Of a stretch of DNA of 52,743 nt, positions 2,424-30,259 are shown piece after piece. The position numbers and the translations under genes were made by a program. How positions within the stretch are numbered: position 1 is the first letter of the stretch; each line of letters begins with the position of its first letter. A model generated the notes under the pieces. That model was not told the DNA's origin. It saw only the letters and a program-made list of their open reading frames with translations, and did not search any database. The stretch comes from a virus (lineage: Duplodnaviria; Caudoviricetes): positions 1-52,743 of the IMG/VR virus record IMGVR_UViG_3300044628_000447; one strand, written 5' to 3'.

Positions 2424-2965
2424 TCGCAGGAGTAAACTGTGTCGTGTAATTTGAGTCGCGGTAAATTATCGTTTACGATAAAGCTGGCATCTCGAAATGT
2501 GATTCTGTTCGTGGGTTGTATTGTGAGCCTGCCGTTGTCTAGCTTGATAAAGTAAAAATCTTTATCTTGCTCTGGCGTATCGCTCCATCCGTCATTAACA
2601 TGGGTGACGTTGAACAGATACTCCCCAGACAAGATTACATCATTGATTTTAACCTGCATTCGCAGACCGCGCAGGTGAGGGTTTGCGAGCGTGGTGAAAT
2701 CGTATGAGTAGCAGTCCCACAGTTGTGCTTGCTTGATAGACCACTCATTACCTTTTTTAGAAAACGAAATAGCATGAGGGGGAACGTTACGATACATCGC
2801 ACCACCGTCACGAAGAATGACGTTAATTCCCCAAGCTCTTCCGGGGATACTTGTGATGCCCACCCACATCGCCTCAACGAATCCACACGGTTCTTGATGC
2901 GTGTAACGCGAATCAATATGCACATACTGATGGACAGGGATATTTCCAATCTTTGAGAAGATCAT
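2420..2965 (-). CDS. Phage hypothetical protein
   Basis: 181 aa, overlap-coupled to the glycosyltransferase. Confidence 0.75.
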   Translation of the reverse strand: MIFSKIGNIPVHQYVHIDSRYTHQEPCGFVEAMWVGITSIPGRAWGINVILRDGGAMYRNVPPHAISFSKKGNEWSIKQAQLWDCYSYDFTTLANPHLRGLRMQVKINDVILSGEYLFNVTHVNDGWSDTPEQDKDFYFIKLDNGRLTIQPTNRITFRDASFIVNDNLPRLKLHDTVYSCE

Positions 2966-3171
2966 TTCTCTAGGATTACTTTTTCTTTGATTTTTGATCC
3001 ATCACAAAAACAGAACATTTCTTCTGCTTCTTCAAGCGAATCGTAAGAGGCTTGATGATACATGCTGAAATACATATCCGCCCATTGCCACAATGTCCAT
3101 ATATTGCGTTGTTGAATCACATACTGTTTTCTTCCATTTTGGAAGGTTCTTTCAATAATTCGCGCTTTCAT
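2962..3171 (-). CDS. Hypothetical protein (probable start MKARII)
   Basis: ORF in operon with ATGA overlaps. Confidence 0.65.
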   Translation of the reverse strand: MKARIIERTFQNGRKQYVIQQRNIWTLWQWADMYFSMYHQASYDSLEEAEEMFCFCDGSKIKEKVILEK

Positions 3172-3410
3172 GCTACTGACTTGCTGCCTTTGCACTTCCA
3201 TTTTTTCCTCGACAGTCGGTTGGGGCTATTCGGGTCATTCTTCCAGTCACCTTTGATCTTTGCCGAACGCGCACAATACGCATCCCCCTTGGCCGTGCCG
3301 GGACGAATACGATCCTTGCCATCCTTCGCCTTTCCAGCCTGCCCATACTTGATTGTCTTTGTTCTACCTGTCTTTGGATTCTTAACTACCTTGGTAAATC
3401 TTTTTTTCAT
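3168..3410 (-). CDS. Small basic phage protein
   Basis: Lys/Arg-rich; YCARS...DPNSPNRLSRKKWKC pattern seen in aquatic phages. Confidence 0.75.
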   Translation of the reverse strand: MKKRFTKVVKNPKTGRTKTIKYGQAGKAKDGKDRIRPGTAKGDAYCARSAKIKGDWKNDPNSPNRLSRKKWKCKGSKSVA

Positions 3411-6192: not shown

Positions 6193-6211
6193 TGGTTATC
6201 GGTTCCGATAA

Positions 6212-7672: not shown

Positions 7673-7728
7673 TATCGATACCGATAATCTGAGTTCATGC
7701 TTGACCTGTCAACAAAAGTTTGTAGACT
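7672..7728. promoter_or_regulatory. Divergent control region: palindrome 7672..7687 plus rightward promoter TTGACC-N14-TG-TAGACT (7701..7728)
   Basis: Motifs read directly between divergent genes; a leftward TTGACA lies at 7707..7712. Confidence 0.6.
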
Positions 7729-7739
7729 AATCACAGGAA

Positions 7740-8051
7740 ATGAGACTAGACCACCCACTGATTGGCGCATACGAAGCCTGCATGTCAACCTACGAAGAGT
7801 CAAAAAGGTTGAAGCAGTCTGGTAGGTTTGTGTTTGCCAAACAGCTTAAAGAGACAAGGGCAATGCTCGGTCTAACTTGCAGGCAGCTTGGAGGGTCAAT
7901 CGGGGTTACAGGACAACTTATCAGCCAAATTGAAACAACTGCCAAAAGTATCTTGAACCGAGATCAAGTCCAAAAAATTGTAGAACTATGCTCAAACGCA
8001 AAACACCCCTCCGCGCCAAATCTGGATTCAAAAAGCGAGGCGGGAAATTAA
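7740..8051 (+). CDS. XRE-family helix-turn-helix regulator
   Basis: LKETRAMLGLTCRQLGGSIGVTGQLISQIE matches the HTH_3 pattern. Confidence 0.8.
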   Translation: MRLDHPLIGAYEACMSTYEESKRLKQSGRFVFAKQLKETRAMLGLTCRQLGGSIGVTGQLISQIETTAKSILNRDQVQKIVELCSNAKHPSAPNLDSKSEAGN

Positions 8052-8302
8052 ACGCAGTCAGCGATAGGCGTAAGGAGCTAAACAAAGAATATGCATCAGT
8101 CCGTAGAGAGTATCTGCTATCAAGCTCAAGGTGTGAAGTCTGCGGGGGAGAAGCTACGGACATACATCACAAAAGTAAAAGGGGTAAGAACCTATCTAAC
8201 AAAGATACGTTCATGGCTGTTTGCCGCCAGTGTCATACCAACATCCACGACAATCCAGCGTGGGCAAGAGAAAAAGGATATTTGATTTATGAATATAAAT
8301 GA
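7988..8302 (+). CDS. Small HNH endonuclease
   Basis: CEVCG...DIHH...N...VCRQCHTNIH. Confidence 0.85.
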   Translation: MLKRKTPLRAKSGFKKRGGKLNAVSDRRKELNKEYASVRREYLLSSSRCEVCGGEATDIHHKSKRGKNLSNKDTFMAVCRQCHTNIHDNPAWAREKGYLIYEYK

Positions 8303-8554: not shown

Positions 8555-9021
8555 TGATCTTTGAAACATTTTTGATCGCGCAGCGTGGAAGCCACTTCCC
8601 AAGGGGTTGTGCTGTAGCCATTGGCTATAGGGACACGCAGGCCATTGACCGCCTTAACCGTCAAATACATTACGCTGCCAAAACACGGCAAGCACCAATG
8701 TCGGGGGTGCAATTAAAACCGATGCGCTAGAGTAGCGTCTAGTCCGATCAGAATATTTTAGCTAGACTAGGGGAAATGGGGCTTCATGCCCCGTCCTGTA
8801 ATCCAATCACCCACTGTTTAAAACACTGGCAGAATCATTGGAGACAAAGGCTAACCCTAGTTTAGTTTACTTTGTAGCAGGTAGGTGTCTAATTACCGGA
8901 TGAGCGGTTATGGGACGGAAATATCCATCCGACGCCACATCGAACTGGGGGGACTCTGGGTAGTCCATAAGTTTGGCAACCCCACACCTATAAAGAGGAT
9001 GCATACTCGTTCCTGCTACAA
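8555..9021 (+). ncRNA. Array of three closed structured RNA-like domains after a boxA-like element
   Basis: Closing stems 8571-78/8745-52, 8760-72/8855-67 and 8872-81/9012-21; G-U pairs favour the + strand. Confidence 0.55.
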
Positions 9022-9031
9022 CTTATTTTAT

Positions 9032-9166
9032 ATGAAAAACACAACATCAAAATCAAACACAAGTTCCGTAAAGAAAACCAGCGCAGCAGGTAAGGGGGAT
9101 AGCCCAAGACCAATCACTAAAAAGTATTGGGAAAACTACGATGCTATTGATTGGAAGAAAAAGTAA
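9032..9166 (+). CDS. Small phage protein (GKGDSPR...YWENYDAI family), 44 aa
   Basis: C-terminal half of track ORF 8885..9166, starting at ATG 9032. Confidence 0.65.
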   Translation: MKNTTSKSNTSSVKKTSAAGKGDSPRPITKKYWENYDAIDWKKK

Positions 9167-11974
9167 TCATTCGCCCCAGTCATCAGTAGCATAATCTTCC
9201 TCATCAGCAACTAACGCAGGCTTTTCATCTCTTGACCAAAACCTATTAGTTGGAACAGCTTTATCGGTTCCGATAAAAACAAGTCCGTTCTTTCTAGCGA
9301 TTTCTAAGGCGTATACAAATGAATCCGCGCAATTATCTACAAGGATTCCATTAGCATAATATACATTATCATTTTCGAGGACCAAGTTTAATACCCTTGC
9401 GTCCCTTGTTTCTTTTGATGATCGCACAACTTTTGGAGCAGCAAACGCGCTTCCTGTAAGGATCGCCGTTAAAATCTTTACCACATTCAGCACATTTATA
9501 GGTAACTGTTTTATACTTTTCACGATTTGCATTTTGGAAACAAGCCCCGCTACAATACTTGGATTTTGTTTTGTTTTGTGTGATGACTGGTTTTCCGCAT
9601 TGCTTGCAAGACCCATCAAACTTTTCACGTTTGAGAATGCTGTTGTATGCATGATTTCTATGCCACTCTCTTCCTTCTTCTGATGAGTGCCACTCTTTTG
9701 CCGCCTCTTGAGCAAGCTTAAGAGACTCCAAATTCCTTGCGTAATAATGTTGGTCTTTGAATCTTTCTTGCATATGCATCCGCATGTGTTCGGCTTTTGA
9801 AAGAAGCTCCATATTTTCAATTCTGTTATCAGTCCAATCGCCATTCTTGTGATGGATTTCAAGGCCATCAGGAATAGGCCCGTTGTGCTCAATCCAAATG
9901 ACTCGATGTAGAAGTCTCTCGCCCGTAGCCTTGTTCCAGTCTTGATAATATCGACCCGTTGTTTGAATGCCGTATTTGCGTCCGTTGTGAATAATGAATT
10001 TAGGATGTTCCATACAATTAGTCTTTCTTCAGACTCTATTGTATATGCGCCCGAAAGGTTGTCAAGCCTGACCCATCCATCTTCCCATGTAAAAACACGA
10101 TGTTTTCCTTTTCCTTCAAGAACTCTTCCATCACTAAATTCTACTTTGCATATTTCGTTGTGAATTTCATCATGGATAAAAGAAATTTTTGTTACACCAA
10201 AAGGAGTAATCACTTCATCTCCGGGCGTTAGATTTTCAATCTTTACTTGACCTTTTGGAGTCAAAATCAATGTTCCCTCAACAAAACAGTCTGGCGAGTA
10301 TCCAATTCGCGCCTTAAAATCATTCTTAGTCTCAATAGAAATCTTGCGAGTCTTTAGAGTATACCTTCTAAGGCAAAGCTCTCTACCAAGCTCGCTGGCA
10401 TAATCAATTCCCCATATCGTTCTACTTTTGAATCCGTGATAGGCAGAATAGTGGAACTCGGATACAAGACGATCATAAACATCCTTACATGGACGCTTAT
10501 CCACATCCGCCGCGATACGGTCAGTCGGCCTACCCATAGAAGAGATTAGAACAATACTATGTCCATTTTGGTCATACTTTAGCCACTCTCTGATAATAGC
10601 CTGCCCAACCCTACCGCCATCACCGGACACGTCCATACCAAATCTCTTTGGCTCAACACCAGCTTCTCGGCAGATACGGACAACTTCAGTAGCAAGTTGG
10701 TTCTCAAATTCAGCAGTCTCTCTAGCGGAAAGCTGGATAACGTGCTGTTTCTCCATAAACATTACTTTGTTTTGAGTCCCGCGAACATATCCAAGTTTGG
10801 CTATTGTAAGCACGCACCTATCGCCTCCAGCGGTAAATGCAGTATCAAATCCCGCTACTTTGGTTAATCCCTCTGAAGACCACAATGGTTCATCTGCGGT
10901 GTTGGCGTTACGTATCAAGTCGCTAGTAAGAATGGTCTGAGCAAAGCCAGCCTTTGGCCACCAGCCAATAGCGTTACGAACATAGTCAACAGCATTCTCA
11001 TCACCGTAGCACTGCCGCAACATCTGAGCCTGCTTTGTCCTATCCATTAGGAACGGGAATGGTGGAGGCTCATTAGATGGTGCTTGAAAGTTTGGCGAAC
11101 GCATGCCGTTATAGAACAAGCAAACGCCTGTCTCGGTTTCCCACTTGTCCATGTCCATTGACACGCTTTCAAAGTTAGCCTGCCCTCTTGGAAGACACCA
11201 ACGTGTATGCGGATTGTCACCAGAAGATGGGTTGCCGATACCGATAAACACCTTATCGTCGTTAGAAGAAAGGTTGACTTTACTTGTCAACGCACCCATC
11301 TCCATTTCTGGCAACTCATCAAGGGCCAATCGAATCCTACTGTTCTTACGACCACGGGTTGTGTCAATAGCCTTCTGTCCTTCGTTACCTTGAGGGAATG
11401 CCAGAGCTTTAATAGCGTTACTGTAGTCCTTTTGGTCTCCACCGTCTCCACCTCCCCATACGATCATGTGGCGGTAGTCCATTAGGTTTCCAATCTTAAT
11501 CCGCGAACACTTCCATAGCTTTGAGATGATACCCCAGATACGATCCTCGGACGCACCGATAGTCGTAGTGGCAACCCAAGAAGATGTGCAGGTAGGAGCG
11601 GAACACCAATCAAGAAGAATCCAAAGACCAACAGGAAACGACTTACCCATAGATGCGGCTCCAGCAAGAACCACGTCATCATTATTGCAAAGCTCTTCAA
11701 TAGTTCTAAGAAGCTGAGTATTCATGTAGCCTCTTGATTTTATAGACACATCGTTAGGCCACTGAAATTGAACTGCTTTAATAAAATGCTCGAATGGAGT
11801 CAGTAACTTAAAGTCGCCTAGATCAATATTATTCTTAATGCAATAAGTTCGGCCATACTGACCACGGGTTATTGAGTAGCAGAACAATTCAATACTCAAA
11901 TCGTCCATTGTGTCTGGAAAAGCCATCCCGTATTTATTGATCGTTTTCTTGCTTGACATAATTCCATTTAACAA
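9167..11974 (-). CDS. terL: Terminase large subunit with intein
   Basis: Walker A GAASMGKS, Walker B LALDE, GNP coupling motif, RNase H-like GFDTA..GGD and SPD|CAD; true start may be ATG 11959. Confidence 0.9.
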   Translation of the reverse strand: MLNGIMSSKKTINKYGMAFPDTMDDLSIELFCYSITRGQYGRTYCIKNNIDLGDFKLLTPFEHFIKAVQFQWPNDVSIKSRGYMNTQLLRTIEELCNNDDVVLAGAASMGKSFPVGLWILLDWCSAPTCTSSWVATTTIGASEDRIWGIISKLWKCSRIKIGNLMDYRHMIVWGGGDGGDQKDYSNAIKALAFPQGNEGQKAIDTTRGRKNSRIRLALDELPEMEMGALTSKVNLSSNDDKVFIGIGNPSSGDNPHTRWCLPRGQANFESVSMDMDKWETETGVCLFYNGMRSPNFQAPSNEPPPFPFLMDRTKQAQMLRQCYGDENAVDYVRNAIGWWPKAGFAQTILTSDLIRNANTADEPLWSSEGLTKVAGFDTAFTAGGDRCVLTIAKLGYVRGTQNKVMFMEKQHVIQLSARETAEFENQLATEVVRICREAGVEPKRFGMDVSGDGGRVGQAIIREWLKYDQNGHSIVLISSMGRPTDRIAADVDKRPCKDVYDRLVSEFHYSAYHGFKSRTIWGIDYASELGRELCLRRYTLKTRKISIETKNDFKARIGYSPDCFVEGTLILTPKGQVKIENLTPGDEVITPFGVTKISFIHDEIHNEICKVEFSDGRVLEGKGKHRVFTWEDGWVRLDNLSGAYTIESEERLIVWNILNSLFTTDANTAFKQRVDIIKTGTRLRARDFYIESFGLSTTGLFLMALKSITRMAIGLITELKIWSFFQKPNTCGCICKKDSKTNIITQGIWSLLSLLKRRQKSGTHQKKEESGIEIMHTTAFSNVKSLMGLASNAENQSSHKTKQNPSIVAGLVSKMQIVKSIKQLPINVLNVVKILTAILTGSAFAAPKVVRSSKETRDARVLNLVLENDNVYYANGILVDNCADSFVYALEIARKNGLVFIGTDKAVPTNRFWSRDEKPALVADEEDYATDDWGE
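9332..10288 (-). mobile_element. Intein (319 aa) in the TerL nuclease motif
   Basis: Block A CFVEGTLILT, block B KGKHRVF, C-terminal YYANGILVDN followed by extein Cys+1. Confidence 0.9.
9369..10013 (-). CDS. HNH homing endonuclease nested out of frame inside the intein
   Basis: LHRVIW..HNGPIP.GLEIHHKNG...DNRIENMELLS..EH (HNH_3-like) plus CxxC...CSxxC Zn fingers; -1 frame relative to TerL. Confidence 0.88.
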   Translation of the reverse strand: MEHPKFIIHNGRKYGIQTTGRYYQDWNKATGERLLHRVIWIEHNGPIPDGLEIHHKNGDWTDNRIENMELLSKAEHMRMHMQERFKDQHYYARNLESLKLAQEAAKEWHSSEEGREWHRNHAYNSILKREKFDGSCKQCGKPVITQNKTKSKYCSGACFQNANREKYKTVTYKCAECGKDFNGDPYRKRVCCSKSCAIIKRNKGRKGIKLGPRK

Positions 11975-12369: not shown

Positions 12370-12400
12370 CTAACTCATTATCGTTTACGATAACTATACA

Positions 12401-23991: not shown

Positions 23992-25155
<1,164 letters not shown>

Positions 25156-30244: not shown

Positions 30245-30259
30245 TTATCGGAATCGATA

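Follow-up and report, generated by a model that had tools for sequence, protein, structure and literature searches.

We sought to understand how one stretch of terL, the gene for the large terminase (TerL), can serve at the same time as an intein and, in another reading frame of the same strand, as the gene of an HNH endonuclease. The DNA in question is IMG/VR virus record IMGVR_UViG_3300044628_000447 (Duplodnaviria; Caudoviricetes), a complete 52,743-bp virus genome with direct terminal repeats at its ends, which was analysed over its whole length and is called the window below. Inteins are textbook in-frame selfish elements. A first reading of the letters alone (the original prediction) had proposed for this terL an intein with its nuclease encoded out of frame. 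We conclude that the locus is very probably a composite mobile element, namely a class-1 mini-intein with a separately expressed HNH gene running through its centre in the −1 frame. It is an apparently widespread and distinct variant, and it is not the first out-of-frame intein endonuclease.

The intein and the HNH gene in the terL locus

The features on which the argument rests are listed here by window position.

9167–11974, minus strand: TerL precursor open reading frame (ORF), 935 aa as listed, in the order N-extein, intein, C-extein; likely start ATG 11959
10289–11959, minus strand: TerL N-extein, ending ...GYSPD (from the ORF list and alignment)
9332–10288, minus strand: class-1 intein of 957 nt or 319 codons, from Cys1 (CFVEG...) to ...ILVDN319 and followed by Cys+1 (from Hint_2, alignment and AlphaFold2 (AF2)/Foldseek)
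9170–9331, minus strand: TerL C-extein, 54 codons from Cys+1-Ala-Asp-Ser, with the stop at 9167–9169 (from the ORF list and alignment)
9953–10288, minus strand: Hint N-lobe, intein residues 1 to ~112, of which 1–81 are modelled confidently and 82–112 are placed from conservation only
9332–9430, minus strand: Hint C-lobe, residues 287–319, blocks F/G, ...VLNLVLENDNVYYANGILVDN; its first ~20 codons overlap the C-terminal tail of HNH
9431–9922, minus strand: TerL-frame linker, ~intein codons 123–286, an off-frame read-through of the HNH gene, kept open and otherwise unconstrained
9923–10012, minus strand: N-junction, ~intein codons 93–122 and HNH codons 1–30, with a diversity of 0.09–0.18 at all three codon positions
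9369–10013, minus strand: ORF of the HNH homing endonuclease, 214 aa and a TGA stop, lying entirely within the intein in the −1 (= +2) frame with respect to TerL
9780–9914, minus strand: HNH_3 catalytic core, HNH residues 34–78 (Pfam and alignment)
9426–9608, minus strand: two CxxC...C...C zinc-ribbon modules, HNH residues 136–196 (conserved cysteines and Foldseek)
10038–10065, minus strand: predicted sigma-70-like promoter, TTGACA (10065–10060), 16-nt spacer, TACAAT (10043–10038), from a consensus scan and within the Hint-N coding sequence

Between 9100 and 10500 on the minus strand, the TerL frame contains its terminal TGA and no other stop, the HNH frame is open solely between the TGA at 10031 and the TGA at 9371, and the third frame has 33 stops. 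The original prediction had TerL interrupted between SPD and CAD by a 319-aa intein, and its coordinates proved exact: Cys1 is encoded at 10286–10288, Asn319 at 9332–9334 and Cys+1 at 9329–9331, and Pfam Hint_2 matches TerL residues 563–592 with 34.9 bits (cut-off 28.4). Cys1 and the block-B His63 are invariant in 11 of 11 aligned inteins, as is Asn319, while N301, L302, L304, N308 and Y310–N319 of the Hint C-lobe are largely invariant. Both the intein frame and the HNH frame were modelled with AF2, each from a shallow alignment of 11 sequences. In the intein frame the pLDDT (predicted local distance difference test) score was 69–90 for residues 1–80 and 77–84 for the C-lobe, and fell below 50 for residues 82–286. 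The confident parts matched the Msm and Mch DnaB mini-inteins (6bs8, 6riy) and gp41-1 in Foldseek at E ~2e-5 and probability 1.00, and all 15 PDB matches of the model at E ≤ 0.001 were inteins or related Hint/Hedgehog autoprocessing domains. The in-frame middle of the intein has no Pfam match, which together with its low pLDDT agrees with the earlier remark that it resembles no domain.

The window intein presumably splices out of TerL, since packaging requires TerL and this is a complete record with terminal repeats. Some details weigh against this reading. The position of the block-B threonine is taken by Lys60 (the canonical T-x-x-H is found in the relatives L020 and L026), the penultimate residue is Asp318 in place of the usual histidine, which more distant relatives have, and AF2 confidence is low at residues 82–112, which were assigned to Hint by conservation alone. 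A group I intron at this place was rejected as an alternative, a scan of 9000–10600 having given no Rfam match at E ≤ 1.

The identity of the host protein was examined by several kinds of comparison. Walker-A-like GAASMGKS and DELPE motifs can be read by eye in the N-extein. Searches of the N-extein gave no Pfam or PHROG match at E ≤ 0.01, and phmmer against the PDB gave nothing meaningful. In the ESM Atlas, ranks 1–4 and most other listed clusters were terminase clusters (0.97–0.98). The host proteins of related inteins match Terminase_6N/6C or Terminase_3/3C, and in these hosts the intein begins at position 144–148 of nuclease-domain profiles 155 positions long. The proposed insertion at the conserved acidic motif of the TerL nuclease is probably right. 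The junction in Clostridium phage phiCDHM19 reads HDDA/C...N/CDA (slashes mark the splice points), a site that we take to be the C-terminal acidic motif of terminase nucleases; the window junction, SPD/C-ADS, falls in the same D-x-x-D motif one residue earlier. At the nucleotide level (blastn) the TerL gene matched nothing in 50,697 phage records, and tblastn with whole TerL found five of these records, every match being confined to the intein. A related TerL (L021), compared by sequence with solved structures, matched only the ATPase part of T4 gp17.

The original prediction had also called the −1 ORF an intact HNH nuclease with zinc fingers. Pfam HNH_3 (PF13392) matches it with 70.1 bits (cut-off 24.8; E 1.2e-19) and PHROG 15471, 'HNH endonuclease', at 4.1e-21; HNH_3 is the sole Pfam family, with no Endonuclease_7 match at E ≤ 0.1. 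A profile search of both frames, which had been suggested as a check, thus separates them cleanly, with Hint_2 in the TerL frame and HNH_3 in the −1 frame. All 11 aligned HNH sequences have H54, H55, N57, D59, N67, H76 and H80, and little or no variation is seen in the two cysteine quartets (C136/C139/C154/C158 and C174/C177/C192/C196). The zinc ribbons are presumed to be the DNA-binding part of the enzyme. The AF2 model of the HNH frame has a mean pLDDT of 84.2; its best PDB match in Foldseek is I-HmuI (1u3e), a weak one (E 0.15, probability 0.77), and its zinc ribbons match the YacG zinc ribbon (4tma_K) with probability 0.97. The HNH profile found no match by sequence among solved structures, and prokaryote genomes scanned with the HNH alignment gave three weak partial matches only.

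Selection on the two reading frames

Which frame is maintained was read from the window and five distinct IMG/VR relatives, all with gapless 319-codon inteins at 72–92% nucleotide identity (six close relatives were found, and L016 was dropped because its intein is identical to that of L015). The mean pairwise diversity at TerL codon positions 1, 2 and 3 was 0.22, 0.16 and 0.56 in the N-extein and 0.12, 0.07 and 0.37 in Hint-N, and over the overlap, codons 93–306, it was 0.11, 0.32 and 0.18. Position 3 is the peak of diversity in the exteins and Hint-N (0.37–0.56) and again past codon 306, while from codon 126 to 305 the peak lies at TerL position 2 (0.25–0.45), which is the wobble position of the HNH frame. 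Ratios of nonsynonymous to synonymous change (dN/dS) were calculated by the Nei-Gojobori method (NG86) for the 15 pairs of close relatives only, distant members being saturated. In the centre, codons 126–290, dN/dS was 0.106 in the HNH frame, 1.18 in the TerL frame and 1.60 in the third frame, which served as a control; in Hint-N the TerL frame gave 0.082. The per-frame comparison that the original prediction had proposed therefore placed the HNH frame under strong purifying selection. HNH is a working gene, and the middle of the intein in the TerL frame is no working protein.

At the edges of the overlap both frames are held. At both junctions (codons 93–125 and 291–306) dS was ~0.2–0.3 in either frame, compared with 1.0–1.7 in the flanking single-frame parts; for the N-junction the values were 0.29–0.30 compared with 1.2–1.7. 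Codons 291–320 vary little at all three positions. In five divergent inteins, identity in the TerL frame is about equal to that in the HNH frame or higher up to ~codon 112, the values within codons 93–112 being 0.53 versus 0.42 and then 0.46 versus 0.47; the HNH frame is the better conserved one over codons 123–290, and the TerL frame again from 293. Constraint on two proteins at once is confined to the two junctions, ~codons 93–122 and 288–306, and over the central ~165 codons the TerL frame evolves as a non-coding frame that needs only to stay open. The interval had been described as a true dual-coding region. That description stands as far as both frames are open and the HNH frame is selected, but it has to be narrowed to the junctions where two proteins are concerned. 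There are three layers of selection, on the TerL frame at the intein ends, on the HNH frame in the centre, and on both frames together with expression signals at the junctions. This makes the locus a clean case of overprinting, with one frame under purifying selection and the other selected only for the absence of stops.

The low ratio in the HNH frame bears directly on the idea that HNH is a decaying relic, neither expressed nor used, in an intein inherited vertically only. Decayed versions do exist, with a premature stop at 95 aa in L025, an internal deletion that leaves 116 aa in L026 and L027, and a broken locus in Clostridium phage phi CD119; such a fate is also discussed in the available text of a 2025 preprint (10.1101/2025.01.02.630785). 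In the window's own group all catalytic and zinc-binding residues are kept, and inteins with divergent flanks occur here and there among empty alleles (see below). We consider a relic highly improbable.

If the TerL frame has to remain readable, stops should be missing from it wherever HNH is embedded. The embedded loci number 28, comprising the window, L001–L004, 12 of 14 loci from a first scan and 11 of 15 loci examined from a second IMG/VR scan. The 15 were drawn from 80, being the 14 that match ~100 or more query residues plus L185, and the remaining 65 are short HNH-motif matches, except for L018 and L025, which the first scan had covered. Across HNH the TerL frame has no stop in any of the 28, even where HNH has decayed (L025, L026, L027). 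Nine free-standing homologues have 1–12 stops in the equivalent frame, and a split form from a Vibrio phage has 14. When HNH was back-translated with the codon usage of the window, the TerL frame received a mean of 5.26 stops against none observed (P(0) = 0.00115); other window genes carry 4.43 stops per 100 codons in their +1 frame. Among NTN codons of HNH, NTA and NTG account for 7 of 37, five of these being unavoidable ATG, compared with 38% in other window genes. A shuffle of synonymous codons within the gene gave P(0) below 5e-5 for Acinetobacter phage Highwayman and 3e-4 for phiCDHM19, with the caveat that it gave 0.145 for the window, 0.217 for L002 and 0.298 for L004; for these three the test is too conservative, because the codon composition of HNH is already adapted. 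By these counts the TerL frame across HNH is kept stop-free beyond chance, as the original prediction had held that it must be.

The offset between the frames is constant as well. The HNH start lies at 2 mod 3 from the TerL frame in the window and in six of six published loci examined, and in 23 of 23 embedded IMG/VR loci the open host frame is HNH frame +1. The other alternative frame has 9–37 stops in embedded genes and 2–37 in six of the free-standing homologues, whose TerL-type (HNH +1) frame has 1–12. Probably every embedded case has the same offset because that other frame is full of stops.

These regularities also speak to an assembly or sequencing artefact, in which two compensating indels would have shifted an HNH gene that is really in frame. 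Another 27 loci, all assembled independently and four of them in genomes of isolated phages, show this frame structure; artefactual indels would not hold an accidental frame open for 214 codons; and the codon-position signal switches frame within the junctions, where diversity is low at all three positions. We give this explanation next to no credence.

On the composite-element reading, translation of the terL message would run without a break across the 319 codons of the intein. Residues 1 to ~112 (the N-lobe) and ~287–319 (the C-lobe) would fold as a Hint domain, and the off-frame read-through of ~175–205 residues would loop out as an unstructured linker. Cys1, Asn319 and Cys+1 would then excise the intein to leave active TerL reading SPD-C-ADS. 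A Hint core of 115 residues that tolerates an unstructured insert of ~200 residues may be useful in protein engineering.

Expression of the HNH gene

The −10 hexamer of the predicted promoter ends 24 nt before the HNH start, ATG 10013. TTGACA-16-TACAAT is the only site with at least 11 of 12 consensus letters on either strand of the 52.7-kb genome, although the consensus of the host may differ. It is retained in five of five distinct close relatives, once as TACATT. Among more distant members, L020 has a 10/12 site (TTGACG-16-TACAAT) at the same position, phiCDHM19 a perfect 12/12 site (TTGACA-17-TATAAT) at −51 followed by AAGGAG and GTG, L023 has TTGACA-17-TAAATT, and L003 a 10/12 site. A search region of 235 nt, lying before or at the start of HNH, holds a site of at least 10/12 in 5 of 19 embedded lineages, where the background rate predicts 0.66. 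By prediction the leader is unstructured (−2.4 kcal/mol, equalled or bettered by 172 of 200 shuffled sequences). We suggest that HNH would be made separately from ATG 10013, most likely from a short transcript of its own that begins at this conserved site and has a short, A-rich, unstructured leader.

The same architecture could work without a dedicated promoter, if ribosomes began internally at ATG 10013 on full-length terL mRNA and the hexamers were a by-product of conserved Hint codons. Several points weigh against a dedicated promoter and so favour this version: 14 of the 19 embedded lineages have no site of at least 10/12; the window and L020 share the position of their site and are perhaps not independent; no other window gene has a comparable site, so that the host polymerase may not use this consensus at all; and the letters of TTGACA and TACAAT fall in conserved Hint codons (RLDN and YTIE), with the consequence that their conservation is perhaps partly driven by the protein. 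A strong Shine-Dalgarno sequence, present before the HNH start in L024, phiCDHM19, L004 and L003, would moreover suffice for internal initiation. On the other side, no other sigma-70 match in the 105 kb of strand scanned is as good, and the site stands at just the point where a promoter is needed; phiCDHM19, from an unrelated host lineage, has its perfect site at the same relative place. The synonymous third positions within the hexamers (CTT, GAC, TAT, ACA) are also invariant among close relatives, despite a wobble diversity of 0.37–0.45 in TerL nearby. Taking both sides together, we judge expression without an own promoter to be unlikely.

The window HNH itself has no Shine-Dalgarno sequence, and none of 18 long window ORFs has one in the 20 nt before its start, which suggests that the host of this phage initiates translation without it. 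Internal initiation was one of two routes that the original prediction had offered, and it is the one now favoured; the other, frameshifting, fared badly. A programmed −1 frameshift would yield a fusion of N-extein, Hint-N and HNH or, if another shift followed, an in-frame intein of the canonical type, and the two frames do share a strand and are offset by −1. The HNH-frame TGA at 10031–10029, six codons before ATG 10013, leaves just 18 nt for such a shift; no slippery heptamer of the form X XXY YYZ was seen by eye in this gap, and its sequence varies among relatives. The relatives keep a start codon at this place, with ATG or GTG heading the HNH N-terminus in 16 of 17 embedded or split loci listed. 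Furthermore, were the HNH frame used in translating TerL, there would be nothing to hold stops out of the TerL frame, and yet 28 of 28 embedded loci have none there. A frameshift origin is exceedingly improbable, and HNH is probably made by internal initiation, from the putative promoter that the element itself carries.

Distribution, mobility and kinship

The 28 embedded loci span several unrelated terminase families. Searches with tblastn revealed HNH homologues beneath annotated terminase coding sequences in four published phages of unrelated hosts, namely Clostridium phage phiCDHM19, Tetrasphaera phage TJE1, Acinetobacter phage Highwayman and Rhodobacteraceae phage LS06-2018-MD07. In such loci, annotation pipelines report a single long 'terminase' and overlook the nuclease, as in these four GenBank phages. 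The PHROG families phrog_30251 and phrog_35162 match the off-frame peptide of the intein middle; they are built partly on it, so that read-through proteins already stand unrecognised in databases.

Broken and split forms accompany the embedded ones. In phi CD119 (L006, 778–2595) the terminase is annotated as ter2 plus ORF3 in the same frame, and three stops (1744, 1759 and 1849) lie upstream of a truncated HNH remnant whose frame is open from 1920; its HNH lacks the N-terminus, unlike that of its relative phiCDHM19. Either decay or errors in an early sequence would account for this break. In Vibrio phage 1.238.A (L005) the N-fragment of TerL ends within the HNH ORF, and Hint-C is encoded farther on by an ORF of its own, in the frame that the N-fragment also uses.

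Free-standing homologues adjoin terminase genes, between TerL and portal in L007–L011 and L021 and before TerS in L012. L021 (649–2888) and L022 each have an intein-less TerL followed directly by a free-standing HNH of the same family, and in both the TerL and the HNH share a nearly identical tail, ...TSAGY. It looks as if insertion of HNH there duplicated the 3′ end of terL. In a tree of 33 HNH genes, embedded and free-standing states interleave, with five changes of which at least three are forced.

The TerL side of the story was followed in the best 80 of 263 confirmed N-extein relatives, at 75–89% identity. Of these, 77 have no intein and read SPD (or SCD) and then directly L-[AGS]-D; empty alleles carry leucine where intein alleles have Cys+1. 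On a tree built from 81 N-exteins (without L038 and L105, whose motif the parser missed, and without the truncated L014; L110 and L111 were retrieved later) the six intein-bearing rows need six state changes, at least five of them forced by well-supported branches, and each intein-bearing gene neighbours empty alleles. A local tblastn search found HNH in 2 of 79 related loci, exactly the two that bear the intein. Compared with the nearest empty allele, most mismatches of an intein-bearing allele fall in the ~200 nt upstream of the site or the 40 nt downstream. In the comparison of L016 with L035 they number 14, 27, 3, 6, 6... per 100 nt going upstream and 12, 0, 0, 1 per 40 nt going downstream, and L039 against L040 shows a like pattern. 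Two points count against a simple reading: the changes on the tree do not separate gains from losses, and in L097 against L067 the divergence of the flanks is less cleanly limited to the insertion site. Scattered inteins with co-converted-looking flanks would fit active homing by repair with co-conversion.

The population pattern thus suggests how the element may move. In a mixed infection HNH would cut intein-less terL alleles, and repair would copy the intein, HNH and a few hundred bases of flank into the cut allele. HNH probably spreads the intein between terL alleles in this way. In the pairs L035/L016 and L040/L039, several synonymous differences fall within ~30 nt on each side of the insertion, together with the change from leucine to cysteine at +1. 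Such flank changes might also protect occupied alleles from their own nuclease.

HNH proteins encoded beside terminase genes assist packaging in some cos phages. The HNH studied here might accordingly be a packaging accessory nuclease that works with terminase instead of a homing enzyme, and the fact that its free-standing homologues always adjoin terminase genes suits that role. Of 79 close phage loci, however, 77 have neither the intein nor a copy in the fetched flanks, which makes the protein dispensable for packaging in this clade; the flank pattern fits homing; and the window already encodes a separate small HNH protein. We hold a packaging role to be very unlikely for the intein-borne enzyme. 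The small protein (104 aa, 7988–8302, plus strand) is of a different type (PHROG 740, 1.9e-11), sits ~1 kb from the 3′ end of terL and may itself be packaging-associated.

The original prediction had called this layout rare rather than new, rightly in view of a preprint by Gosselin, Arsenault and Gogarten (bioRxiv 10.1101/2025.01.02.630785). Its available text describes inteins of actinobacteriophages whose homing endonuclease is endonuclease VII-like and lies 'in reading frame 3 relative to the intein', as well as antisense LAGLIDADG or VSR-like genes; the authors call the same-strand case previously unreported and propose that a free-standing endonuclease invaded the intein. As far as that text goes, the window intein resembles theirs in having a same-strand endonuclease ORF between the splicing blocks at a +2 offset, an in-frame middle without recognisable structure, the large terminase among its hosts, and a distribution that suggests ongoing transfer. 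It differs in its endonuclease, which is HNH_3 with two zinc ribbons where those described are endonuclease VII-like (IPR004211), and in its phage, which is uncultured and no actinophage and has relatives that infect Clostridium, Acinetobacter, Rhodobacteraceae and Tetrasphaera. When the HNH of Tetrasphaera phage TJE1, the one actinophage member of the family, was run by tblastn against 50,697 records, the 22 that matched included no further actinophage. The window intein is a variant of the preprint's out-of-frame kind, outside the endonuclease VII-like family. In the available text of the preprint we found no frame-specific selection, stop-avoidance statistics or promoter and ribosome-binding-site signals, on which its supplements may bear. 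What is added here beyond the print we found is frame-specific selection, stop-avoidance statistics, an embedded promoter-like site and the series of free, embedded, decayed and split forms.

Three other known arrangements are close, each compared from the accessible portion of its source. Arsenault et al. (Genes 2025, PMC11855218), of the laboratory that also wrote the preprint, report a ShiLan-type out-of-frame HNH inside an insertion in a phage DNA methylase. Like the window intein, this insertion is open in the frame of the host gene and is distributed as a homing element; unlike it, the insertion has no splicing domain and is thought to be retained as a protein loop. No ribosome-binding site was found for the ShiLan HNH, and leaderless initiation was proposed, whereas members of the window family have Shine-Dalgarno and promoter-like signals. 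A separate locus from our scans, L126, has an HNH_3-like ORF (2881–3321) in the −1 frame within an 809-aa open frame with a DNA methyltransferase-like C-terminus; no Hint motifs were seen in it, and it resembles the published ShiLan-type hidden HNH. The fractured genes of Dassa et al. 2009 (PMC2677866) are split inteins whose two halves are separated by a free-standing endonuclease gene. Like the window, they have an endonuclease gene, expressed independently, between the parts that encode Hint-N and Hint-C, and a relative of the window element in Vibrio phage 1.238.A has their layout; in the window the host frame is unbroken and the intein contiguous and, by prediction, cis-splicing. Finally, I-HmuI-type HNH homing endonucleases, borne by phage group I introns, and free-standing phage endonucleases with collaborative or trans homing (PMC6083498, PMC2790892) have in common with this family the HNH motif and, in the free-standing homologues, a place next to the terL target. 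The window enzyme differs from I-HmuI, which is carried by a group I intron, in its intein carrier, the weakness of the structural match and a zinc-ribbon DNA-binding part.

The acquisition of endonucleases by inteins and the origin of split inteins have been argued mostly from end states. Tentatively, we see in this family one long-lived mobile element in which a single DNA stretch is the end of the Hint N-lobe, a promoter, a leader and the first ~30 HNH codons, and which may form an evolutionary hub between free, embedded and split forms; we put this a little below an even chance. As part of the hub reading, split inteins such as the Vibrio phage form would arise once the unconstrained linker gains stops. 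If true, the hub would be a concrete, sampled pathway for both processes. What the family shows is the stage between, in which an endonuclease gene with predicted expression signals of its own runs out of frame through a mini-intein, and this embedded state is stable over deep divergence (HNH identity down to ~33%, hosts from Clostridium to Acinetobacter). Decayed, free-standing and split relatives are all open to sampling.

Elsewhere in the window, the palindrome TATCG-N4-CGATA occurs at 24 sites with at most one mismatch, compared with 0.30 expected (for example at 6197–6210, 7673–7686, 9262–9275, 12379–12392, 24003–24016 and 30246–30259). Several copies lie 1–15 nt upstream of ORF starts and one lies within the TerL C-extein; the palindrome may be a phage-wide regulatory or recognition motif.

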